Part shown: one piece after another, positions 3,142 to 17,844 of the stretch
Position numbering within the stretch: position 1 is the stretch's first letter
How the letters are laid out: the number at the start of each line of letters is the position of its first letter
From: an uncultured Oscillospiraceae bacterium
GTDB lineage: Bacteria > Bacillota > Clostridia > Christensenellales > CAG-138
DNA: 64,000 bases
Direction of reading: 5' to 3'
Assembly (NCBI GenBank): GCA_964474405.1
Contig: CAYYUV010000001.1
Coordinates: forward strand, 90,310 to 154,309
Translations under genes and position numbers: made by a program
The notes under the pieces: generated by a model
What the model saw: the letters and a program-made list of their open reading frames with translations, nothing else
Told to the model about the DNA's origin: nothing
Databases searched by the model: none

Positions 3142-4536
3142 TTACAGCTCCAGAAAATCCTTCAGCCGCTTGCTGCGGGACGGATGGCGGAGCTTTCTTA
3201 GCGCCTTGGCCTCGATCTGCCGGATGCGCTCTCTGGTGACGTTAAACTCCTTACCAACCTCCTCCAGCGTGCGCGCCTTGCCGTCGTCCAGACCGTAGCG
3301 TAGCCGCAGAACCTTGGCCTCGCGCGGGGTGAGGGAGTTCAGCACATCCATCAGCTGCTCCTTGAGCAACGTCACGGCCACTGCGTCGGCGGGCGCGGGC
3401 GCATCGTCGTCGGGGATAAAGTCGCCGAGATGGCTGTCGTCCTCCTCACCGATCGGCGTTTCCAGAGAGACCGGTTCCTGCGCGATCTTGATGATCTCGC
3501 GAACCTTATCCTCCGAGATGCCCATCTCGCGCGCAATCTCGTCCGGCCGCGGGTCACGCCCGTATTCCTGCACAAGCTGGCGGTTCACGCGGATCAGCTT
3601 GTTGATGGTTTCCACCATGTGAACAGGGATGCGGATGGTGCGGGCCTGATCCGCGATGGCGCGGGTGATGGCCTGACGGATCCACCAGGTTGCATAGGTC
3701 GAGAACTTATAGCCCTTGCGGTAGTCGAATTTTTCGACGGCCTTGATCAGCCCGAGGTTCCCCTCCTGAATCAAATCCAGAAACAGCATGCCGCGTCCGA
3801 CGTACCGCTTGGCAATGGACACGACCAGCCGCAGGTTTGCTTCGGCGAGCTGATGCTTGGCGTCCTCGTCGCCCTCCGCCATGCGCTTGGCGATGTCGAT
3901 TTCCTCCTGCGCTGTCAGAAGGGGCACCTTGCCGATCTCCTTGAGGTACATGCGAACCGGATCGTCAATATTGATGCCCTCGGTCGTAGCAAGCACGTTT
4001 TCGATCTCGGCAATCTCCTCGTTGATGTCGTCGGGTACTTCAACCTCCTCCACGACGTCAATGCCAAGCTCCTCAAGATTCTCATAGACCTTCTCAATCT
4101 GCTCCTGATCGAGATCGACCTCCGACAGCGTGTCCATGATCTCCTTGTAGGTCAGCATGCCGCGCAGCTTGCCAAGCTCCAAAAGCTCAGCGATCTTTCC
4201 GCGCGCATCCTTGGGCGACGGTTCCTTCTCACCCTCCGCCGTTTCACCTTCGGCCGCTGCGCTGCGGCTCAAATCGCCGTCGGCGTCCTTGGACGCGGCG
4301 AGGCGTACCGTTTGCTTCGGCGGCAACTTTGTCTTTTTTTGTTTTGCAACGGGTTCCGCGTTCAACACGGAGTTCTCGGCGGCAGCATTTCCGCCGCGGA
4401 AATCGGCGGCTGTCTGCGTGTCCTCGGCAGGCGCCCCCGTCGGCTGCTTTGCTGCGCGCTTGCCGGCCTGCGTTTTTTCGGCCACTGCTTCCTCCGCGGG
4501 AGCGGATTCCTTGATGATTGCCTTCTTTTCGGTCAT
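3142..4536 (-). CDS. rpoD: RNA polymerase primary sigma factor (sigma-70/SigA) with long acidic/low-complexity N-terminus
   Basis: Regions 1.2-4 are recognisable ([41 protein letters not shown]; ...[30 protein letters not shown]). AAGGAG RBS. Confidence 0.97.
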
Positions 4537-4548
4537 GTCCCCATCTCC

Positions 4549-6300
4549 TTACTTTGATGCCCGTATCATTTGTTGTATCTGCCGCATGGCTTCCGCACGT
4601 TCGGCGGAACTTAAACCCGGCTTTCCTAATTTTGTCTGTAATTCAACCAAAGTATCCGCGTTTTGCAGCTCTTTGAGGCGTTTTAGACAGTCTGCCGCCA
4701 CTTTTTCCGGATTCAGACAGACATCCCGCGCCGCCAGGGCCGCAAGCGCCTCGGTTTCGCTCTGCTCCGCAGAGCCGATATAGGCTGTCAGATCCAGCGC
4801 GGGCGTGGCCACGGCCTGGGCAAACAGCCGCCGATAAGCGGGAACCGTCAGCAGAGCCTCTGCGCCGTCCCGTGCGGCAAGGCCAAGCGCGTCGCGGCTT
4901 TGCAGCACCGCGTTGCACAGCTCCCGCTCCAGCATGGCGTGTGCGCCCTCCTCACGTTCACTGCGGCGGCGCAACCCTCCGCGCGTGAAGGAGACCGGCG
5001 GCGTGGCGGCGTCATGCGCGCCGCGCTGCCCCTGCTGCTGAAGCGAGGCAAGGTCATACCCGGTTTTTCGGGCGACCTGCTTGTAGTACCGATCCTGCTC
5101 GACCGGCTGCAGCGACGAAATATAGGCGCAGGCGCGGACGGCATACTGCTCACGCTCGTTCTCCTTGGAAAAATCGGTTCCGCGCGCCATCGCCTCCAGC
5201 TGGAAGGCCGACAGCGTCAGCGCGTTCTCCTTGAGCAACGCAAAACCGTCGCTCCCGTGAATCTGAACATATTCATCCGGGTCCAGCCCGTCCGGCAACA
5301 CAATGACGCGGACGTTCAGCCCCTCCTGATGCAGAATTTCCATGCCGCGTATGTTGGCGTTCTGCCCGGCGGCGTCGCCGTCGTAGGCGATATAGACGGT
5401 CTCAACATAGCGCTTGAGAAGCCGCGCCTGCTGCTGGGTCAGCGCCGTGCCGAGCGAGGCCACGGCGTTTTCAATGCCCACGCGGTACAGGCCAATGACG
5501 TCCACATAGCCCTCGACCATGATCAAGTCCGCAAGACGCTGGTTCTTAATCAGGTGCAGACCGTAGAGGTTGGCGCGCTTGGAATAGATCGGCGTGTCGC
5601 CGGTGTTGAGATACTTGGGCTTGTCCGCATCGTTCATCGCCCGCGCGCCGAAGCCCAGCACGCGCCCGCCCGTCCCCACGATCGGGAAAATCAGCCGGTT
5701 GCGATAGGCGTCGTACACGGTGCCCTTGTCCGGGTTTTTGACCAAAAGCCCCGCGTCCAACAGCTCCTTTTCGCTAAACCCCTGCTTGCCCAGCTCTTTC
5801 TTGACGTTGTCCCAGCCCTCTGGCGCATAGCCGATGCCGTAGCGCAGGATGATCTCCCTCGAAAAGCCGCGCCGCGCCGCATAGGCACGCGCTGCTGCGC
5901 CGCCATCGGACAAAAACTGTTCGCAAAAGTACCGCGCAGCCGCCTTCATCGCGGCATAAAGCCGTTCACGATAGGCACGCTGTTCCCGCAGCCGCCCGTC
6001 GTCCACGTCGTGCGGCATATCCATGCCCACACGGTTGGCCAAAAACTGTACGGCCTCGGAATAGCTCAGACGCTCAATGTCCATGATGAATTGGATCACC
6101 GTGCCGCCGGCATGACAGCCAAAGCAATAGAACAGCTGCTTGTCCGGCGAGACGGAAAAGGACGCCGTTTTTTCGCCGTGCAGCGGACAAAGCCCCCAGA
6201 GCTTGCGCCCCTTGGGCTTGAGTTCCATGTATTCGGACAGAACGGCTGCGATCTCGTTTTTTTGCAGCAGCTCCGCCATCCACGCTTCCGGAAACGCCAT
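4549..6300 (-). CDS. dnaG: DNA primase
   Basis: Zinc ribbon CPLHGEKTASFSVSPDKQLFYCFGCHAGG plus a TOPRIM domain (MVEGYVDVI ... YDGDAAGQ). GGAGG RBS. Lies immediately upstream of rpoD. Confidence 0.97.
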   Translation of the reverse strand: MAFPEAWMAELLQKNEIAAVLSEYMELKPKGRKLWGLCPLHGEKTASFSVSPDKQLFYCFGCHAGGTVIQFIMDIERLSYSEAVQFLANRVGMDMPHDVDDGRLREQRAYRERLYAAMKAAARYFCEQFLSDGGAAARAYAARRGFSREIILRYGIGYAPEGWDNVKKELGKQGFSEKELLDAGLLVKNPDKGTVYDAYRNRLIFPIVGTGGRVLGFGARAMNDADKPKYLNTGDTPIYSKRANLYGLHLIKNQRLADLIMVEGYVDVIGLYRVGIENAVASLGTALTQQQARLLKRYVETVYIAYDGDAAGQNANIRGMEILHQEGLNVRVIVLPDGLDPDEYVQIHGSDGFALLKENALTLSAFQLEAMARGTDFSKENEREQYAVRACAYISSLQPVEQDRYYKQVARKTGYDLASLQQQGQRGAHDAATPPVSFTRGGLRRRSEREEGAHAMLERELCNAVLQSRDALGLAARDGAEALLTVPAYRRLFAQAVATPALDLTAYIGSAEQSETEALAALAARDVCLNPEKVAADCLKRLKELQNADTLVELQTKLGKPGLSSAERAEAMRQIQQMIRASK

Positions 6301-10792: not shown

Positions 10793-11233
10793 TGAAGAAA
10801 CCTCCAAATGTAATTCTGTGGGAAAACAGGCACAAACCTATCCTCCCCCATGATAAAAGAAGTATATCGCGTTTTGCCCAAAAGGACAAGTCGAATTTGT
10901 AATAGTTTTGTGATATTGGGATGTTAATTTTGCGAAACCCGCATACGGGTGCGCGTCAAACACAAAGAATCGGGGATTGGACATCCACCGGCCGATGGCA
11001 GGGGAAGAAAACAACCGTGTTTCATATGCCGTTGTTACGGAAAGGGGCGCCGTCCGACCGTGGCATAAAAACCGTCGGCATAAACCGGCATAAAATAATA
11101 TAAGCTGTGACGCGCGCTCCATGCGCTTGACAAAACGGGTGAAATACCACAGAATAAGATTGCGGAGTTGGGGTTTCGCTGTTCTCCTTTTTCTGCCGTT
11201 TTTATGTATTATTTTCGGATCGGGAGGGATCAG

Positions 11234-12556
11234 ATGCCGTCTTATCTGGATAAACGGATCACCGTGGCGGACGCGCTTGCGATGGTTCAGTCCAACTGTC
11301 AGATCGTGACCGGGTTTGGCCCGTGCGCGGCGCATGCGTTTTTGTCCGAGCTGCATACCATCGCCGATCGGGTCACCGATGTGGTGCTGACTGAGGGGCT
11401 GCTGTTTCGGGAGTACCCGTTTTTTACCGATCCCGCATACCGCAAGAGCTTTCTCCACGACAGCTGGTTCTATATGGCCTGTACGCGAAAGGCTGCCTGG
11501 ACGGGCTGCCAGTCCTATCTGCCGGGGCATCTGCATGCCACCGTGCAAAAATGGCTTCAGACGCATACGCCCGATCTGTACATCGGCGCAGCCAGCCTGC
11601 CGGACGAGCATGGATTTGTCTCGCTCAGCACGTCCTGTGTCTATGAGCGCAGCATCATTGACAAGGCAAAGACCGTGATATTGGAGATCAATCCGAACTA
11701 TCCCGTCACAATGGGCGACTGCCAGATCCCCGTTTCCCAGGTGGATTATTTTATCGAGGCGGATTATCCCGTGCCCGAGCTGATTCCCGTGCCGGTGACG
11801 GAGAAGGACCGCGTGATCGGCCGCTATATTGCGGAGTTTATTCATGACGGAGACTGCTTGCAGCTTGGCATCGGCGCCATTCCGGACGCCGTGACCCAGG
11901 AGCTGTATGGCAAGCATGATCTCGGCGTGCATACGGAGCTGATGACCACCGGCATGATGCGTCTGTATCAGGCGGGCGTCGTTACGGGCAACTGCAAACA
12001 GCGCGAACGCGGCCGCATGGTCGCGGGCTTTGCCATGGGCACGCGTGAGCTGTATGATTTTATCGACCACAATCCCGCTGTCGTGCTGATGGACATTTCG
12101 GTTGCCAACGATCCTTACGTTATCGCGCAGAATGACAATCAGGTCTCCATCAACTCCACGCTGGAGATTGATCTGACCGGCCAGTGCGCCAGTGAATCGA
12201 TCGGGTCGCGGCAGTATTCCGGAACCGGGGGGCAGACCGATACCGCCTCCGGCGCCCAGATGTCGAAGAACGGCCGCTCCTTTATCGCGCTGTACGCCAC
12301 CGCGCTCATTCAAAACCCCGCCACCGGCGAGCGCGTTGAGGTATCCAAAATTGTGCCGCAGCTCAAGCCCGGCGCGGCGGTTTCCCTTTCCCGCAACGAT
12401 GTGGATTATGTGGTGACCGAGTATGGCGTGGCTGCCCTGCGCGGCATTCCCATCCGGGAGCGGGTTGAGCGGCTGATCGCCATCGCGCATCCGAAATTCC
12501 GTGATGAGCTGCGCCGGCAGGCCTATGAATGCGGCATCCTGTATCCCCGCGCGTGA
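11234..12556 (+). CDS. Acetyl-CoA hydrolase/transferase family protein (4-hydroxybutyrate/butyryl-CoA:acetate CoA-transferase-like)
   Basis: The SGTGGQTD motif and overall family pattern. ATG 11234 is preceded by GGGAGGG. Confidence 0.9.
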   Translation: MPSYLDKRITVADALAMVQSNCQIVTGFGPCAAHAFLSELHTIADRVTDVVLTEGLLFREYPFFTDPAYRKSFLHDSWFYMACTRKAAWTGCQSYLPGHLHATVQKWLQTHTPDLYIGAASLPDEHGFVSLSTSCVYERSIIDKAKTVILEINPNYPVTMGDCQIPVSQVDYFIEADYPVPELIPVPVTEKDRVIGRYIAEFIHDGDCLQLGIGAIPDAVTQELYGKHDLGVHTELMTTGMMRLYQAGVVTGNCKQRERGRMVAGFAMGTRELYDFIDHNPAVVLMDISVANDPYVIAQNDNQVSINSTLEIDLTGQCASESIGSRQYSGTGGQTDTASGAQMSKNGRSFIALYATALIQNPATGERVEVSKIVPQLKPGAAVSLSRNDVDYVVTEYGVAALRGIPIRERVERLIAIAHPKFRDELRRQAYECGILYPRA

Positions 12557-12601
12557 ACTGGCCTTTTGCCCGCACGGGGCATTTGCATATTGGTAAATAA
12601 C

Positions 12602-12628
12602 AAAAGACGCCCGGCGGGGCGTCTTTTT
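12602..12628. terminator. Bidirectional terminator between convergent genes
   Basis: AAAAGACGCCC-GGCG-GGGCGTCTTTTT: an 8-bp GC stem flanked by A and T runs. Confidence 0.8.
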
Positions 12629-12642
12629 GACACGGTCAGGCG

Positions 12643-13422
12643 TTACGGCACCGGCGTGCCGGAAGGCACAGAGCTGCTTGCCTTGATGTATTGGGCATAG
12701 GCATAGCACTTGGCGCCGCTGGAGGCGACCTCAATATAGTAGAAATCGCCCGTCTTGAAGTAGATGTATACGACAGCGCCCTCAGACAGCTCACCTACGG
12801 CCTTGCTGTCCTTGGTCGGGCCCTCGCGCAGCGCGACAGAGCTCGCGCTGACCTTGCCGGTCACGGCGCCGGTCGGGGCGTCGCCCGCCTCCACCGCTTT
12901 GACATAGTCTTTGGAAATATAGCCGAGCTTGCCGTCCTTGACGATCTTGACAAAGCAGAAGCCGTCCTTCGTCTCGTAGACAATCACCTCGGTGTCCTTG
13001 TTGTACTTGCCGAGAGATACATATTTGGTTGACGGTCCGCCGCGCAGGTTCACATCGTTGGCGGTTACGGTGCCGCTGGTTGCGTTATCCTTTTGCTTGC
13101 TGGTGGGCTCCGTGCCGAGCGCGGGCAGCGGCGTCTCCGCGGGCGCCGACGTCGCGGGGGTCGTGGTCTGTGTTTGCGGCGACTGCGTGGCCGTGGCTGG
13201 ATCGGGCGTCGTGATGACAGGCGCATCCGTTGCAGGCGGAGCCGTTACGACGTTCTCCGGTGAAAAAGTGGGCGCGACCGTGGGGGTCAATTCGCTGCTC
13301 TGATTGCCCTTGGCGCAGGAATTGGCAAAAATGATGATGATGCATGCCACGATGACCAGCACGATACCCAGTATAAAAAGATATCCGCGCGGGGTAATGC
13401 GCAGTTTCTTTTGTGTTGCCAT
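12643..13422 (-). CDS. Membrane-anchored protein with Thr/Pro-rich linker and two bacterial SH3 domains
   Basis: N-terminal TM (YLFILGIVLVIVACIIIIF), a TP-rich spacer, and two SH3b-like repeats (VNLRGGPSTKY..., VALREGPTKDSKAVG...). GGAGGG RBS. Confidence 0.85.
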   Translation of the reverse strand: MATQKKLRITPRGYLFILGIVLVIVACIIIIFANSCAKGNQSSELTPTVAPTFSPENVVTAPPATDAPVITTPDPATATQSPQTQTTTPATSAPAETPLPALGTEPTSKQKDNATSGTVTANDVNLRGGPSTKYVSLGKYNKDTEVIVYETKDGFCFVKIVKDGKLGYISKDYVKAVEAGDAPTGAVTGKVSASSVALREGPTKDSKAVGELSEGAVVYIYFKTGDFYYIEVASSGAKCYAYAQYIKASSSVPSGTPVP

Positions 13423-13491
13423 ATTGATCCCTCCAATCTATGCATGCAGTGTATCATACTTTTCCGGGTTTTCCAATAGGGAAACAATGGC

Positions 13492-13520
13492 TTGACGGGC
13501 GTCAGCGCATCTGGGATAAT
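13492..13520 (+). promoter_or_regulatory. Sigma-70-like promoter for the 166-aa ORF (and possibly the RT operon)
   Basis: TTGACG (13492-13497), 17-nt spacer, GATAAT (13515-13520). Confidence 0.5.
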
Positions 13521-13551
13521 ATGCCTATGATCATGACAGGAGGGGCGGCAC

Positions 13552-14052
13552 ATGGGAATTCTGGACAAACTGGCCAAAAAGGGGCTTAGTGGGCTGAAGG
13601 ACACGTTGGAAGATGTCATCGGTGTGGATTTCGATCGCGCGGCGTCCGGGCGGCCAGGTGGTTCCTTTACGCAATCGGCTGACCGTGCGCGTCCCGCCGA
13701 ACGAAGCTATGCCGCGCCGCGCGCGCAGGAAGCGCCAAAGCGCAATCTGTTCGCCTTCTTTGGTGAGCTTTTGGACAGTGAGTTTTCGGAGTATGAGGTG
13801 CAAACGCGCGTCGCGGCGCCGGCGCTTGGGCTCAATGTGGATCCGTGCAAGCCGTATGATTTTATCTTGTGCCGGGATGGATATGTTTGCGCCGCGATCA
13901 TGCTGACGCCGCACAACCGGGACAGAAACGCCGCGTTTTTGAACGCGCGCGCCGCCGCGCAGCAGCTTGGGATACCGTTTGTCAACTTTTATCTCCATTA
14001 TCCGAACGAGCGAAGCTACGTCATCCGGCGCATTCGCAGCTTCCTAGCCTGA
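13552..14052 (+). CDS. Hypothetical protein; disordered N-terminal half, C-terminal domain vaguely DUF2726/PD-(D/E)xK-like but lacking obvious catalytic residues
   Basis: Strong RBS AGGAGGGG 7 nt before the ATG. The coding-like C-terminal half reads ...PYDFILCRDGYVCAAIMLTPHNRDRNAAFLNARAAAQQLGIPFVNFY.... The functional assignment is weak. Confidence 0.65.
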   Translation: MGILDKLAKKGLSGLKDTLEDVIGVDFDRAASGRPGGSFTQSADRARPAERSYAAPRAQEAPKRNLFAFFGELLDSEFSEYEVQTRVAAPALGLNVDPCKPYDFILCRDGYVCAAIMLTPHNRDRNAAFLNARAAAQQLGIPFVNFYLHYPNERSYVIRRIRSFLA

Positions 14053-14062
14053 ATCCGGGAAG

Positions 14063-14198
14063 AAGAGAGGGAAATGCGGGTCTTCCCCCGCACCTGCGGA
14101 GGGGCGAAGCAGCGGCTTTCAATCGGTCGTGCAGGTGGCCGGCCGCCGTTCAGTCCTGTGTCAGCAATTGCTGCCTTCAAAGCGTCTTTCCCTCTCTT
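14063..14198 (+). repeat. Perfect 12-bp inverted repeat closing a 112-nt GC-rich structured spacer directly upstream of the RT gene (candidate ncRNA)
   Basis: AAGAGAGGGAAA (14063-14074) pairs with TTTCCCTCTCTT (14187-14198). Internal elements: hairpin 14084-14104, GGCCGGCC 14137-14144, and palindrome CAGCAATTGCTG 14162-14173. Confidence 0.85.
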
Positions 14199-14224
14199 GA
14201 TTTATTTCCTGATGTGAGAATGAT

Positions 14225-15448
14225 ATGAGCATATTGGAGGAATTGCGCGTGCCCGCGGTTTGGCGCGCGTATCTTGATGATAAGCTGCGAAAGCATGCCT
14301 TGTCCAAAAGCGAGGAGGCCGCCTGGCGCGCCATGATCGACGGCGGCTGCTGTCGCGCGGTGACGGAGCGGCTGACGGAGCCGGGGTATTGCTTTGCGCC
14401 GCCCGAGAAGCGGCTGATCAGCAAGCATGGAAACGCAAAAAAACGTGTCATATACCTGTTTTCGACGGAGGAAAATGCGGTTTTGAAGGTCATGGCTTCG
14501 CTGCTTTACCGCTATGACGGCTGTCTTTCCCCCCACTGCTATTCCTTCCGAAAGAATATTTCCGCCGCAACCGCCATTCGCCGCGTCGCATCGCTGCCTG
14601 ACCGGGCGGCGCTGTGGGGATACAAGGTGGATATTGCAAACTATTTCAATTCCGTCGATGTGTCGCTGCTGCTGCCGATCCTCCGGGACGTGCTTATGGA
14701 CGATCCCATGCTCTATGCCTTTCTGTCCCGGCTGCTGACGCAGGATCTGGCCGTGTGGGAGGGGGAGACGGTGCATGAGAAGCGCGGCATTATGGCGGGC
14801 ATGCCGCTGTCGCCCTTTCTGGCCAACCTGTATCTTGGCGAGCTGGACCGTCATTTTGACGCGCGCGGCGTTCCCTGCGCCAGGTATTCGGATGATATCC
14901 TGCTGTTTTGCGGCACGGAGGCGGCGCGTGATCTGTGCCGCGATGAGCTGCTTGCGCTGCTGAATAAGCATCATCTTGACGTGAACCCCGAAAAGGAACA
15001 GCACATTCGGCCGGGTGCGCCGTTTGCGTTTCTGGGCGTTCGGATCGACGGCGCAAGCGTGGACGTCGCGCCGTCGGCGGTGAGAAAGATGCAGGGGAAG
15101 ATCCGCCGCAAGTCGCGCGCGCTGCGGCGCTGGATGCTGCGTACCGGCGCGGAGCCTGAACGCGCGCTCAGCGCGTTTTGCCGCTCGGTCAACCGCAAAC
15201 TCTATGAGCAGGACGCCGCGCCGGAGCTGTTCTCCTGGTCACGGTGGTATTTTCCGCTGGTCAATCGTACGGACGGGCTGCATCAGATCGACCGATATCT
15301 GCAACAGTATATGCGCTATCTTCTCACCGGACGTACTGCAAAGAGCAACTATCGCATTGGATATCAAGTGTTGAAGGACTGCGGGTATCGCCCGCTTGTT
15401 TCGGCATATTATCGTTTTCGCAATGATGCGGAGAAAGGAAATCCATAA
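14225..15448 (+). CDS. Standalone reverse transcriptase (RNA-directed DNA polymerase), group-II-intron-like/unclassified; no endonuclease domain
   Basis: RT motifs are present: A = KVDIANYFNSVD (14624-14659), B = GIMAGMPLSPFLANLYL, C = YSDD (14885-14896), D/E = LDVNPEK / FLGVRIDG, plus a basic thumb-like C-terminus. An in-frame TGA at 14210-14212 fixes ATG 14225 as the start. Confidence 0.9.
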   Translation: MSILEELRVPAVWRAYLDDKLRKHALSKSEEAAWRAMIDGGCCRAVTERLTEPGYCFAPPEKRLISKHGNAKKRVIYLFSTEENAVLKVMASLLYRYDGCLSPHCYSFRKNISAATAIRRVASLPDRAALWGYKVDIANYFNSVDVSLLLPILRDVLMDDPMLYAFLSRLLTQDLAVWEGETVHEKRGIMAGMPLSPFLANLYLGELDRHFDARGVPCARYSDDILLFCGTEAARDLCRDELLALLNKHHLDVNPEKEQHIRPGAPFAFLGVRIDGASVDVAPSAVRKMQGKIRRKSRALRRWMLRTGAEPERALSAFCRSVNRKLYEQDAAPELFSWSRWYFPLVNRTDGLHQIDRYLQQYMRYLLTGRTAKSNYRIGYQVLKDCGYRPLVSAYYRFRNDAEKGNP

Positions 15449-16101
15449 TGAAGTGCATAAACACCAAGCGTCTGGTTCTGAGGCCGCTGACGGACGACCA
15501 GCTTCTGGCGTGGGCGGAGAACACGGAGGATGCGCATCTTCGGGAGGCCTACCTTCAGATGCTGGCGCGCTGTAAGGCCGATCCCCAGAACCGTCTGTTT
15601 GCGACCGCCTGGGGCATTGAGACGTGGAACGGCGTCGTCGTCGGCGATGCCGGGTTTAAGGGTGCGCCAAAGAACGGCGAGGTGGAGGTGGGCTACGGCA
15701 TTGAAGAGCCGTTTCGCGGCAAAGGATTTGCTGAGGAGGCCGTCCGGGCGCTCATCGGATGGGCATTCAGCCAAAATGGGGTGGATCTCGTGTCGGCGGA
15801 AACAGCGCCGGAGAATGCCGCCTCTCAGCACATTCTGCACAAGCTGGGCTTCGTCCCCGCTGGCGAGGGCGCGGAGGGGCCGCGCTTTTCCTGCACGCGC
15901 CGCACGGCCGTGTATACCGTGTGGTTTCTTCTTACATGCGCAGGCCTGGGTTTCTGCCTGGGCACGGCGTTTGGCAGCATGATAACCGGCCTGATCATCG
16001 GCGCAGCCGTGGGTCTTGCATCGGGGGTCACGCTGGATGTGTACGGCTTGATTCGCCGCAGGCGCAATCAGGCTGCGCGCCGCGGGACGGATGCATCCTG
16101 A
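15448..16101 (+). CDS. GNAT family N-acetyltransferase (RimJ/RimL-like) fused to a C-terminal two-helix membrane anchor
   Basis: Acetyl-CoA loop EEPFRGKGFAEEAV. The C-terminus has two hydrophobic helices (VYTVWFLLTCAGLGFCLGTAF and MITGLIIGAAVGLASGVTL) followed by RRRRNQAARR. The ATG overlaps the RT stop (TAATG, 15446-15450). Confidence 0.9.
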   Translation: MKCINTKRLVLRPLTDDQLLAWAENTEDAHLREAYLQMLARCKADPQNRLFATAWGIETWNGVVVGDAGFKGAPKNGEVEVGYGIEEPFRGKGFAEEAVRALIGWAFSQNGVDLVSAETAPENAASQHILHKLGFVPAGEGAEGPRFSCTRRTAVYTVWFLLTCAGLGFCLGTAFGSMITGLIIGAAVGLASGVTLDVYGLIRRRRNQAARRGTDAS

Positions 16102-16130
16102 CAGATTGCATGCTCGCCGCGTCTGCACCC

Positions 16131-16205
16131 GCCACACCCGCTTTACCGCGCCTGCTTCATAGAAGCCCGCGCGTACGTCTGCCACACCCGCTTTACCGCG
16201 CCTGC
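16131..16205. repeat. Two identical 25-bp direct repeats, 50 bp apart, with a hairpin between them
   Basis: GCCACACCCGCTTTACCGCGCCTGC occurs at 16131-16155 and 16181-16205. Hairpin CGCGCCTGCTTC/GAAGCCCGCGCG lies at 16147-16173. Confidence 0.95.
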
Positions 16206-16260
16206 GCCCGCCCGCTCATGCACCGTCCTGAAAAATCCGTGTAAAGTATATTGTATATGA

Positions 16261-16289
16261 TTGACAAAATATATGATCGGTGTTAAGAT
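16261..16289 (+). promoter_or_regulatory. Sigma-70-like promoter of the liv operon leader
   Basis: TTGACA (16261-16266), 17-nt spacer ending in TGT (extended -10), TAAGAT (16284-16289). Confidence 0.6.
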
Positions 16290-16447
16290 GGCCGCAATCT
16301 CAATGACGATTCGACATGCGAATCATTCGGAAAGCGGGTAACCCTGTGCAGCAGACTTGGAACGGCAACGCAGCATTCACGACGGCGGGCAGCCATTTTG
16401 GCCCGGCGTGTGCGTGTGCCGCCGCTTTCATCGCTCTCTTCCTTTCT

Positions 16448-16555
16448 ATGATGCTCAACGTCCGTGCGTTGGGCATTTTTGTTGTCGTATCCATTCTGGT
16501 ACTGGTACTGATTAGCGTCCTGCTGCTTAGAACGGAACCGCCGAAAAAAGACTGA
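16448..16555 (+). promoter_or_regulatory. Candidate Val/Leu/Ile-rich leader ORF in the liv leader (35 codons from ATG-ATG; the ORF is open from 16316)
   Basis: MMLNVRALGIFVVVSILVLVLISVLLLRTEPPKKD*. Fifteen of the 18 codons at 16475-16528 are Val/Leu/Ile, with no Ala or Gly. No clear SD, hence the low confidence. Confidence 0.35.
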
Positions 16556-16591
16556 CGGCTTGTGCTGAAAGATCGCGGCGGTTCCGAAAAC

Positions 16592-16612
16592 AAACGGGGT
16601 CGCCGTTTTTTT
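16592..16612 (+). terminator. Weak terminator/attenuator hairpin just upstream of livJ
   Basis: AAACGG-GGTCG-CCGTTT followed by a run of seven T (16606-16612). It is preceded by the 10-bp long-range stem GGAACCGCCG (16534-16543) / CGGCGGTTCC (16576-16585). Confidence 0.45.
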
Positions 16613-16644
16613 ATACAATAAAACAAATCGGGAGGGTATTTTCC

Positions 16645-17844
16645 ATGAAAAAAGTAGTATGTCTTTTGCTCGCAGTAGGTGTGATGATGTTCGCGTTTGC
16701 ATGCGCGCCGGCCGACAAGACCGATGCCTCCGGCGCCGATGCAGCAAGCGCCATCAACGTGGGCGTGCTCGCGCCCCTGACCGGCGCGGTCGCCGAGTAC
16801 GGCAACGCGGTCGCCAACGGCGCGATCATGTATCTGGATGAAGTCAATGCCGCTGGCGGCATCAACGGCAAGCAGATCAACATCGTTAAATATGACGAGG
16901 AGGGCGACCCGGTCAAGGCCGTTACGGGATACAATGCGCTGGTCGATTCCGGCGTGACCGCCATCATCGGCGACGTTACCACCGCGCCCACCGTTGCGGT
17001 CGTGGCCGAATCACAGGCCGACAACATGCCCATGATCACCGCGTCTGCCACGGCGGCGTCCGTCACCTGCCAGATGAACGATGACGGCAGCGTGGCCTCG
17101 GTCTATGGCAACATGTTCCGCTCCTGCTTCATCGATCCGTTCCAGGGCAGCAAGATGGCAACCTTTGCCGCCAATGAGCTGGGCGCCAAGAAGGCCGCCA
17201 TTCTCTACAACATCGGCTCCGACTATTCCACCGGCCTGTCCGATGCGTTCCAAAAGACGGCCGCGGAGCTTGGCATGGAGGTTGTTTCGGTCGAGAGCTA
17301 TGCCGACGGTGCGGTTGATTTTCAGAGTCAGCTGACCAATATCGCCGCCGCATCGCCCGACGTGCTGTTTGTCCCCGATTATTACAGCACCATCGCGCTG
17401 GTCGCACAGCAGGCGTCCTCCGCAGGCGTTTCGGCCACCATGCTCGGCGCGGACGGCTGGGATACGGTTCTGGACGTTGTGACCGATTCGGCGCTGCTTG
17501 AGAACGCATATTACTGCTCCGGTTACTCCACGCAGGACGACAGCGAAGCGGTGCAGACCTTTGTCAAAAACTATGAGGAGAAATTCGGTTCCTCGCCCAG
17601 CATGTTCGCTGCACAGGGCTACGATGCGGCCATGATCCTCTGTGCTGCCATTGCGGAAGCTGAGAAGACCGGCGAAGCCGCCGGCAGCGACGCCTACAAG
17701 CAGGCCGTCATCGACGCCATGCGCGCGACCGATATGGACTGCGTGACGGGGCACGTCACCTATGACGAGTTCAACAACCCGGAGAAGACCGCGGCGATCA
17801 TCCACATCACCTCCGGCAAGGCACAGTTCTGGGGCAAATACTAA
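16645..17844 (+). CDS. livJ: Branched-chain amino acid ABC transporter substrate-binding lipoprotein
   Basis: Lipobox LLAVGVMMFAFAC. LivJ/LivK-type periplasmic binding fold pattern (INVGVLAPLTGAVAEYG...). GGGAGGG RBS. Confidence 0.93.
   Translation: MKKVVCLLLAVGVMMFAFACAPADKTDASGADAASAINVGVLAPLTGAVAEYGNAVANGAIMYLDEVNAAGGINGKQINIVKYDEEGDPVKAVTGYNALVDSGVTAIIGDVTTAPTVAVVAESQADNMPMITASATAASVTCQMNDDGSVASVYGNMFRSCFIDPFQGSKMATFAANELGAKKAAILYNIGSDYSTGLSDAFQKTAAELGMEVVSVESYADGAVDFQSQLTNIAAASPDVLFVPDYYSTIALVAQQASSAGVSATMLGADGWDTVLDVVTDSALLENAYYCSGYSTQDDSEAVQTFVKNYEEKFGSSPSMFAAQGYDAAMILCAAIAEAEKTGEAAGSDAYKQAVIDAMRATDMDCVTGHVTYDEFNNPEKTAAIIHITSGKAQFWGKY

Follow-up and report, generated by a model that had tools for sequence, protein, structure and literature searches.

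The subject of this analysis is a reverse transcriptase (RT) gene, and the spacer in front of it, in a 64,000-nucleotide (nt) stretch of DNA from an uncultured Oscillospiraceae bacterium (contig CAYYUV010000001.1, positions 90,310 to 154,309), referred to below as the window. The spacer almost certainly encodes the cognate non-coding RNA (ncRNA) of the RT, which is of the UG26 type, and this RNA is the RT-5 RNA of Rfam, here a 136-nt unit. The element is not of a new kind; the spacer supplies one more example of the Rfam RT-5 motif beside a UG26 RT. The analysis adds an outer helix, a hairpin (Pa), and a pseudoknot, defines where the RNA begins and ends, connects RT-5 with UG26, and brings in a near-constant partner protein. 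An initial annotation of this DNA had pointed to the spacer as the place of the RT's cognate structured RNA, and that proposal is borne out by a full-length RT-5 match, by the presence of the RNA upstream of every homologous RT with enough flanking sequence, and by covarying helices. The core features, in window coordinates, are as follows.

14053-14224, + strand: spacer of 172 nt between an open reading frame (ORF) of 166 amino acids (aa) and the RT, from an ORF scan
14063-14198, + strand: complete ncRNA (extended RT-5) of 136 nt, matched by covariance model R1, in which an outer helix (P0) encloses the hairpin Pa, a pseudoknotted hairpin (P1), and a further hairpin (P2), arranged as a three-way structure, and a single-stranded linker
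14225-15448, + strand: RT of 407 aa, UG26 group, Class 2 UG/Abi, catalytic motif YSDD, assigned with PADLOC and Pfam (RVT_1)
13552-14052, + strand: ORF of the partner protein, 166 aa, with its TGA stop at 14050-14052, ending 10 nt before the RNA

The RNA was identified in a scan of positions 12000-17000 with Rfam 15, which returned a single match. The match was to RF03026 ('RT-5 RNA') at 14088-14189 on the + strand, with 66.1 bits against a gathering score of 45.7 (E 8.6e-12), and it covered model positions 1-104 of 104 and ended 35 nt before the RT start codon, ATG 14225. RT-5 is one of 19 'RT' motifs found adjoining reverse-transcriptase genes (Weinberg et al. 2017, NAR 45:10811, PMC5737381). 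That paper gives no function to RT-5, ties it to no RT clade, and speculates that many of the RT motifs are retron RNAs (PMC5737381). In the paper texts searched, none naming 'RT-5 motif', 'RT-5 RNA', or 'RF03026' was found.

The RT belongs to a defined group. It matched the PADLOC profile RT_UG26 with E 5.3e-142 and 471 bits over profile positions 1-397 of 398. The next-best profiles were the generic PDLC01136 (122 bits) and UG27 (113 bits), followed by UG17 (DRT10), UG4, the CRISPR-associated Cas1_IIIb, and Drt9. No retron RT profile was among the 25 best PADLOC matches, the best of which were UG/DRT or CRISPR-associated RT groups. Pfam found RVT_1 alone in the 407-aa protein, which marks it as a stand-alone RT with no fused known domain. 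UG26 has been placed in Class 2 of the UG/Abi RTs (Mestre et al. 2022, PMC9226505). DRT2 and DRT9 are Class 2 members as well, and the comparison drawn earlier with their upstream ncRNAs is therefore apt. An ncRNA has been reported for UG2, UG3+UG8, UG27, and UG28, with UG26 not among them (PMC9226505), and a literature search found no later paper characterising UG26.

The RT start codon ATG 14225 has a weak Shine-Dalgarno sequence only, as the initial annotation had it, and is backed by a conserved N-terminus (family consensus xxSILxxL; M-S-I-L... in the window) and by 407-aa gene calls in metagenomes. An NCBI-derived protein (P0001, 399 aa) places the start at GTG 14249 instead; a good Shine-Dalgarno sequence, GGAGG, precedes that codon by 8 nt. 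On these features ATG 14225 is favoured over GTG 14249 as the probable start.

Evidence that the RNA and the RT belong together comes from a survey of homologous loci. The RT family comprised 1185 proteins at E <= 1e-20. A scan of species-representative genomes yielded 80 loci, whose RTs are 39-50% identical to the window RT and which come from Bacillota, Bacteroidota, Actinomycetota, and one Acidobacteriota metagenome-assembled genome (MAG). Of the 16 loci scanned with the Rfam model, 15 have RT-5 directly before the RT, and the flanks of all those matches carry an inverted repeat of their own, for example GGAAAAAGGGGA/TCCCCTTTTTCC, CCGGAGGGGGAA/TTCCCCCTCCGG, and ATCAGGGGGAT/ATCCCCCTGAT. A covariance model, R1, has 144 positions and 40 pairs and includes P0 and Pa but not the pseudoknot. 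It gave a full-length, same-strand match upstream of the RT in the window and in 77 of the 77 loci that retain upstream sequence. The remaining 3 of the 80 loci lack a full match and are cut by a contig end at or before the RNA. The window itself matched R1 over the full model at 14057-14202 (137.4 bits, E 8e-37), and this was the only R1 match in its 64 kb. The association of the RNA with the UG26 RT is specific, obligatory, and co-oriented, and the RNA has defined ends.

Two loci of the survey depart from the usual layout. A Muribaculaceae MAG (locus L055) carries two tandem full-length RNAs, at 3493-3643 and 3675-3822, before one UG26 RT starting at 3837. In a Prevotellaceae MAG (locus L071, 231-5194), the potassium-transport genes trkA and trkH lie between the partner ORF with its RNA (809-942) and the UG26 RT (3986-5194), and no second copy of the RNA is present before the RT. 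The arrangement in L071 reflects either a mis-assembly or an RNA acting in trans.

The structure of the RNA was examined on an alignment of 79 RNA copies, from which all counts of copies and pairs below are taken. The covariation check that the initial annotation had proposed shows the inverted repeat and all retained helices to be conserved and covarying. The elements of the RNA, and the tail that follows it, are given here with their pairing.

14063-14074, + strand: 5' arm of P0, AAGAGAGGGAAA, all purine, the left arm of the repeat
14187-14198, + strand: 3' arm of P0, UUUCCCUCUCUU, all pyrimidine, the right arm of the repeat
14076-14091, + strand: hairpin Pa, GCGG 14076-14079 with CCGC 14088-14091; 95.5% paired, 4/4 pairs covarying
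14092-14097, + strand: 5' strand of the pseudoknot, ACCUGC, pairing with GCAGGU 14131-14136 in the apical loop of P1; 99.6% paired, 6/6 pairs covarying
14101-14105/14153-14157, 14109-14116/14142-14149, and 14125-14128/14137-14140, + strand: three segments of the long hairpin P1; 83-98% paired, covarying
14160-14175, + strand: hairpin P2, 14160-14165 with 14170-14175; 93.8% paired, 6/6 pairs covarying
14176-14186, + strand: single-stranded linker UUCAAAGCGUC, candidate template region, with UUCAAA nearly invariant
14199-14209, + strand: U-rich tail GAUUUAUUUCC, terminator-like together with P0, from the T count after P0

The perfect 12-bp inverted repeat, AAGAGAGGGAAA at 14063-14074 and TTTCCCTCTCTT at 14187-14198, was found as first described; when the 172-nt spacer was shuffled 1000 times with its dinucleotides preserved, a perfect repeat of at least 12 bp appeared twice. 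Across the alignment, 96.2% of the P0 cells are paired and all 12 pairs covary. Because P0 was part of the model R1 behind the alignment, a control that does not depend on alignment was added. In this control, the mean RNAduplex energy was -21.2 kcal/mol for cognate flanks, compared with -14.3 for non-cognate flanks and -11.6 for shuffled 3' flanks. The inverted repeat is a true outer helix, P0. Support for the pseudoknot is likewise non-circular, because the pseudoknot was absent from the model behind the alignment.

The alignment as a whole tells the same way. Standard pairs fill 94.2% of the pair cells, against 72.9% with shuffled partners and 44-50% when the strands are slid by 1-3 columns. 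Changes on both sides occur in 43 of 45 pairs, and the covariation score is 0.652 compared with 0.239 in shuffles, a value that 0 of 500 shuffles reach. The 136-nt RNA from arm to arm folds with z = -2.77 and the whole spacer with z = -2.08. The pair 14109-14149 is invariantly G-U (GU in 72 of the 79 copies); there are many other G-U pairs, and together these show the + strand to be the transcribed one.

The finer elements named by the initial annotation fared unequally. The positions of the 166-aa ORF stop, the RT ATG, GGCCGGCC (14137-14144), and CAGCAATTGCTG (14162-14173) are as it gave them; GGCCGGCC belongs to the 3' strands of P1, and the palindrome CAGCAATTGCTG falls inside P2, with CAGC/GCTG as the stem and AAUU as the loop. 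A GC-rich hairpin proposed at 14084-14104 does not hold, its bases being 66.1% paired, against 67.1% in shuffles, with no covariation. These bases belong instead to Pa, the pseudoknot strand, and the base of P1.

Between P2 and the 3' arm of P0 lies the sole long conserved single strand of RT-5. This linker has A at positions 4 and 5 in 79 of the 79 copies, and its length is 11 nt in 59, 10 nt in 17, and 9 nt in 3. The sequence of P0 covaries freely, yet its 5' arm is 91% purine over 43 distinct arm sequences and the 3' arm is 93% pyrimidine. This asymmetry is not needed for a closing helix or for a terminator stem. The Bacteroidota version of the arm, GGAAAAAGGGGA, resembles the retroviral polypurine tract.

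How does this RNA compare with the Rfam model? The helices P1 and P2, the conserved loops, and the adjacency to an RT are common to both. The P0 5' arm lies 25 nt upstream of where the Rfam model starts, and of the 3' arm the model takes in only the first 3 nt; because it spans 14088-14189, P0 and the 5' half of Pa lie outside it. The pseudoknot is absent from its consensus structure line, which, rather than the published drawing, is the basis of this comparison.

The ends of the RNA are marked by sequence features on both sides. Nine loci have no gene directly upstream (L075, L063, L012, L027, L048, L039, L025, L060, and L001). In each of these a promoter of the TTGACA/TATAAT type is present whose -10 box ends 5-8 nt before the first base of P0, and transcription in these loci should therefore start at P0. 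On the 3' side, at least five T occur in the 8 nt after P0 in 60 of the copies, against 2 for the 8 nt before P0, and a run of four or more T follows P0 in 62. The initial annotation had stated that no stem is followed by a U-tract. The contrary is seen in the window, where the 3' arm is followed by GAUUUAUU with U at 5 of 8 nt, and in the clear U-runs of the 60 copies. If P0 is regarded as the stem of an intrinsic terminator, its 'loop' is a folded domain of 112 nt. Discrete RNA probably ends at the U-rich tail after P0. The length from P0 to P0 is also confined, with a median of 136 nt and a range of 124-161 (136 nt in the window), and the distance from P0 to the RT start codon has a median of 12 nt and is 26 nt in the window. 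Taken together, the P0 promoters, the U-run, and the P0-to-P0 length therefore make the RNA resemble a delimited, independent gene with a terminator of its own, the RT being expressed by read-through.

Upstream of the RNA on the + strand, the window has only one promoter-like site, which lies ahead of the 166-aa ORF and probably drives an operon in the order partner ORF, ncRNA, RT. In the window, the RNA would then be made within the operon transcript.

13492-13520, + strand: candidate sigma-70-like promoter, TTGACG, 17 nt, TG-GATAAT, from a pattern scan (10/12 positions, with an extended -10)

The 166-aa protein encoded before the RNA appears to be a regular component of the cassette. A same-strand upstream ORF of at least 70 aa ends no more than 80 nt from P0 in 70 of the 79 RNA copies, usually 1-20 nt before P0. 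A homologue of the partner, recognised by its C-terminal motif, G-[IL]-P-[FY]-I-N-F-Y-T-[HQ]-M-P-N-E-R-x-Y-V-x-x-R-I-x-x-F-[LM], precedes the RNA in ~67 of the copies (~85%). This is far above the 9 of 35 UG26 loci for which a COG2852-type neighbour (cluster 1531) had been reported (PMC9226505). The partner matched the PADLOC profile RTasCOG2852 with E 9e-5. It has no Pfam family match, and a weak match to DUF2726 was seen in 3 of 50 homologues.

An AlphaFold2 model of the partner, built on a 50-sequence alignment, reaches a predicted local distance difference test (pLDDT) score above 94 for residues 62-166, with the order alpha-beta-beta-beta-alpha-beta-alpha. The best Foldseek matches in PDB are weak: the catalytic domain of I-Bth0305I (probability 0.97) and TnsA (0.89), both at E 0.037, with SfsA and FAN1 weaker still. 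On these weak matches, the partner may be a small protein with a PD-(D/E)xK-like, nuclease-like predicted fold. The classical D...ExK motif is not evident in the alignment of partner sequences, and no sequence match to solved structures was found.

The partner starts with a conserved M-G-L-[FL]-D-x-L helix, followed by a disordered low-complexity linker (pLDDT <50, residues 23-42) and the compact C-terminal domain; a few homologues bear N-terminal zinc ribbons instead. In locus L026 (17-2110), an EF-G-like protein (domains II-V) runs into the partner sequence in a single ORF of 697 aa, which may be a fusion or may reflect a stop codon missing in the MAG.

How would the RT use its RNA? The RNA is probably the one that the UG26 RT binds and copies, as template or as scaffold. 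Of the whole arrangement, the best explanation, and a moderately probable one, is that the cognate RT-5 RNA is bound by the UG26 RT and that a short internal segment templates DNA. The RNA would be transcribed with the operon, or, in relatives without an upstream gene, from its own promoter starting at P0. Most transcripts would stop at the U-run after P0, giving much more RNA than RT mRNA, and read-through would supply the RT, whose start codon lies ~10-25 nt downstream. P0 and the U-run would keep the RNA in large excess over the RT. Such an excess has been measured for UG2 and UG28, whose ncRNAs exceed the RT mRNA more than 1000-fold (PMC9226505). The RT would bind the folded RNA and use a short internal segment as the template for DNA synthesis, as in DRT2, DRT9, and DRT10; this synthesis would probably be repetitive, and it may be primed by protein, with the conserved C-terminal tyrosines Y380 and Y388 as candidate residues. 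As the template, the best candidate is the linker that follows the stable hairpin P2 on its 3' side, because it is the only long conserved single strand of RT-5, and P2 may serve as its boundary element. The small upstream protein, with its nuclease-like predicted fold, would be the third component, an effector or a sensor.

Indirect support for this explanation comes from the sister systems. The characterised Class 2 UG RTs (DRT2, DRT9, and DRT10) bind an adjacent structured ncRNA and copy a short segment of it repeatedly (10.1101/2025.10.16.682844; PMC12483538). DRT2 copies a looped template by a rolling-circle mode, DRT9 copies a poly-U tract into poly-dA with a tyrosine as primer (PMC12483538), and DRT10, primed from a C-terminal Ser/Tyr, produces tandem repeats in the manner of telomerase, its A-B-A' template lying immediately 3' of a stable stem-loop (10.1101/2025.10.16.682844).

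The ncRNA of DRT10 (UG17) is like RT-5 in that it serves a Class 2 RT, lies upstream on the same strand, and is 137 nt long compared with 136 nt. Both RNAs have a large closing stem with smaller stem-loops and a single strand 3' of the last stable hairpin, the likeness being one of size and topology, with no sequence similarity seen. Both systems are also tripartite, consisting of a small protein, an ncRNA, and an RT. However, the DRT10 partner is a SLATT membrane protein, whereas that of UG26 has the PD-(D/E)xK-like predicted fold, and the template loop of DRT10 is poorly conserved and of the form A-B-A', whereas the RT-5 linker is a nearly invariant UUCAAA in which A-B-A' is not demonstrable.

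Likewise, the ncRNA of DRT9 (UG28) lies upstream of its RT, is strongly conserved in sequence and structure, and has a short conserved single-stranded motif. Some DRT9 systems consist of the RT and the ncRNA only (PMC12483538; PMC9226505), and a likeness to UG26 is noted. The DRT9 template is a universal poly-U. In contrast, RT-5 RNA has no internal poly-U; the U-run that it does have is found beyond the closing helix, and high-GC members lack it.

The ncRNA of DRT2 (UG2) also lies upstream and has a stem that joins the ends of a looped template. Its product encodes a stop-free repeat ORF (Neo), whereas stop-free frames occur in only 4 of the 79 RT-5 copies. A Neo-like ORF in RT-5 was considered and rejected, since all three + frames are open in just those 4 copies and the RNA lengths fall evenly into the three residue classes modulo 3. 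The initial annotation had noted that no stop trinucleotide occurs on the + strand of the spacer. This is correct for the window up to the TGA at 14198-14200 and fails as a conserved property; the lack of stops in the window is due to the homopurine and homopyrimidine arms.

Several observations weigh against the templating explanation. A search for an A-B-A' template pattern found that in 59 of the 79 copies the UUC of the linker occurs again 6-14 nt downstream (mostly 10-11), where the P0 arm begins. The recurrence shows no covariation, the three copies whose linker begins otherwise have no corresponding change, and the independent conservation of the linker start and of the P0 arm start accounts for it. 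The template is not locatable by sequence analysis, and the UUC recurrence is compatible with copying without being evidence for it. The RNA in the window has no promoter of its own, so that a discrete RNA would need 5' processing or the RNA would act within the mRNA. The U-run is absent in high-GC loci, mostly Actinomycetota. The association of UG26 with defence was graded 'inconclusive' (PMC9226505), and no defence-island context was found around the loci, whose recurrent neighbours are housekeeping genes (ferredoxin, ABC ATPase, RpiB, MFS, and HAD). The literature search found no RNA-seq, RT pull-down, complementary DNA (cDNA), or phenotype for UG26 or RT-5.

A possible but doubtful reading takes the partner, RT-5, and the UG26 RT as a DRT10/telomerase-like, defence-associated system. 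P2 would be the boundary, UUCAAA would be copied, and the cDNA would realign on the UUC of the P0 arm, yielding tandem repeats of ~10-12 nt. For the window, the repeat unit would be the reverse complement of UUCAAAGCGUCU, that is, AGACGCTTTGAA, and the polypurine/polypyrimidine P0 might act as an alignment site, a primer, or a triplex.

Alternatively, the RNA may be a purely cis-acting leader that is not copied, a 5' untranslated region serving as attenuator or operator of the RT, in which P0 and the U-run form a terminator and the 3' arm of P0 hides the ribosome-binding region. The RNA does lie immediately 5' of the RT ORF (median 12 nt), the U-run after P0 is terminator-like, and the pyrimidine arm falls inside the ribosome footprint of the RT start codon. 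However, a pseudoknotted fold of 136 nt with invariant single-stranded motifs, kept in four phyla, is more than an attenuator needs. The tandem RNAs of L055 and the trkA/trkH genes between RNA and RT in L071 also speak against a leader, and the upstream RNA is the template in every characterised sister system. A purely cis-acting role is therefore unlikely, and a regulatory role could coexist with a template role.

It is equally improbable that the RNA is a scaffold only, that is, a cofactor for assembly or activation of the RT, with the DNA being made untemplated or on another template. This would fit with the Class 1 UG/Abi RTs, which make untemplated DNA (10.1101/2025.10.16.682844), and with RT-5, in which neither a poly-U nor a covarying A-B-A' template signature is demonstrated. 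However, UG26 is in Class 2, and the characterised groups among its nearest profiles (UG27, UG17 (DRT10), UG4, and Drt9) are RNA-templated.

A retron is very unlikely. In that case the inverted repeat would be a1/a2 of an msr-msd RNA, and the RT would make msDNA with the 2'-OH of a branching G as primer. The initial annotation had pointed out the likeness to a1/a2, and it stands for the topology, since in both a structured RNA directly before the RT is closed by inverted repeats on its flanks; the speculation on RT motifs in Weinberg et al. 2017 (PMC5737381) leans the same way. The rest differs. The best RT profile is UG26 at 471 bits, with no retron RT among the 25 best PADLOC matches, and the catalytic motif is YSDD. 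The base after the 5' arm, G14076, pairs within Pa, as GC in 60 copies and as GU in 8, and six copies have A in its place; an invariant unpaired branching G is thus absent, and there is no long msd-type hairpin beside the 3' arm. On the RT clade and the branching G, the two features tested, RT-5 is not a member of the retrons.

That the inverted repeat is a product of chance, or the plain terminator of the upstream gene, can practically be dismissed: the U-rich tail and an antisense terminator-like hairpin from the pattern scan would fit, but a repeat this long arose in just 2 of 1000 shuffles, 12 of its 12 pairs covary in 79 copies, and the helix encloses a conserved Rfam motif and is present also where the upstream gene is lacking.

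The genes around the cassette complete the picture of the locus.

10838-12709, - strand: ORF of 623 aa with no Pfam match, upstream of the cassette
12643-13422, - strand: SH3-domain protein, upstream of the cassette
15448-16101, + strand: ORF of a GNAT acetyltransferase, overlapping the RT stop codon (ATGA)

The ATGA overlap suggests translational coupling of the RT and the GNAT gene. As a component of the system the GNAT gene was rejected, as the genes that follow the RT differ from locus to locus without being related, 55 of 60 being singletons; because no conserved gene follows the RT elsewhere, the GNAT gene is a local one and looks lineage-specific. Further downstream, from 16645, lies a periplasmic binding protein of the branched-chain amino-acid type. 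The gene order of the window is the same in metagenome contigs that carry the partner protein, and in contigs with an identical partner protein an acetyl-CoA hydrolase gene lies upstream of the SH3 gene. A template repeat/variable repeat pair of a diversity-generating retroelement was also rejected, the spacer having no second copy in the 64-kb window, with only chance matches of 10-13 nt. As to a phage origin, no close homologue was found in phage records or IMG/VR contigs, where the best match was 31% identical.

Since 2017 Rfam has listed RT-5 without an assigned function, and UG26 has been a UG/Abi group with no known RNA, product, or phenotype; the two are linked here. As a result, UG26 is now a clonable system that is testable with the assays that solved DRT2, DRT9, and DRT10. 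Its RNA and RT together measure ~1.4 kb, which may be of interest for programmable DNA-synthesis tools, and the cassette occurs widely among Bacteroidota and Bacillota of the rumen and gut.

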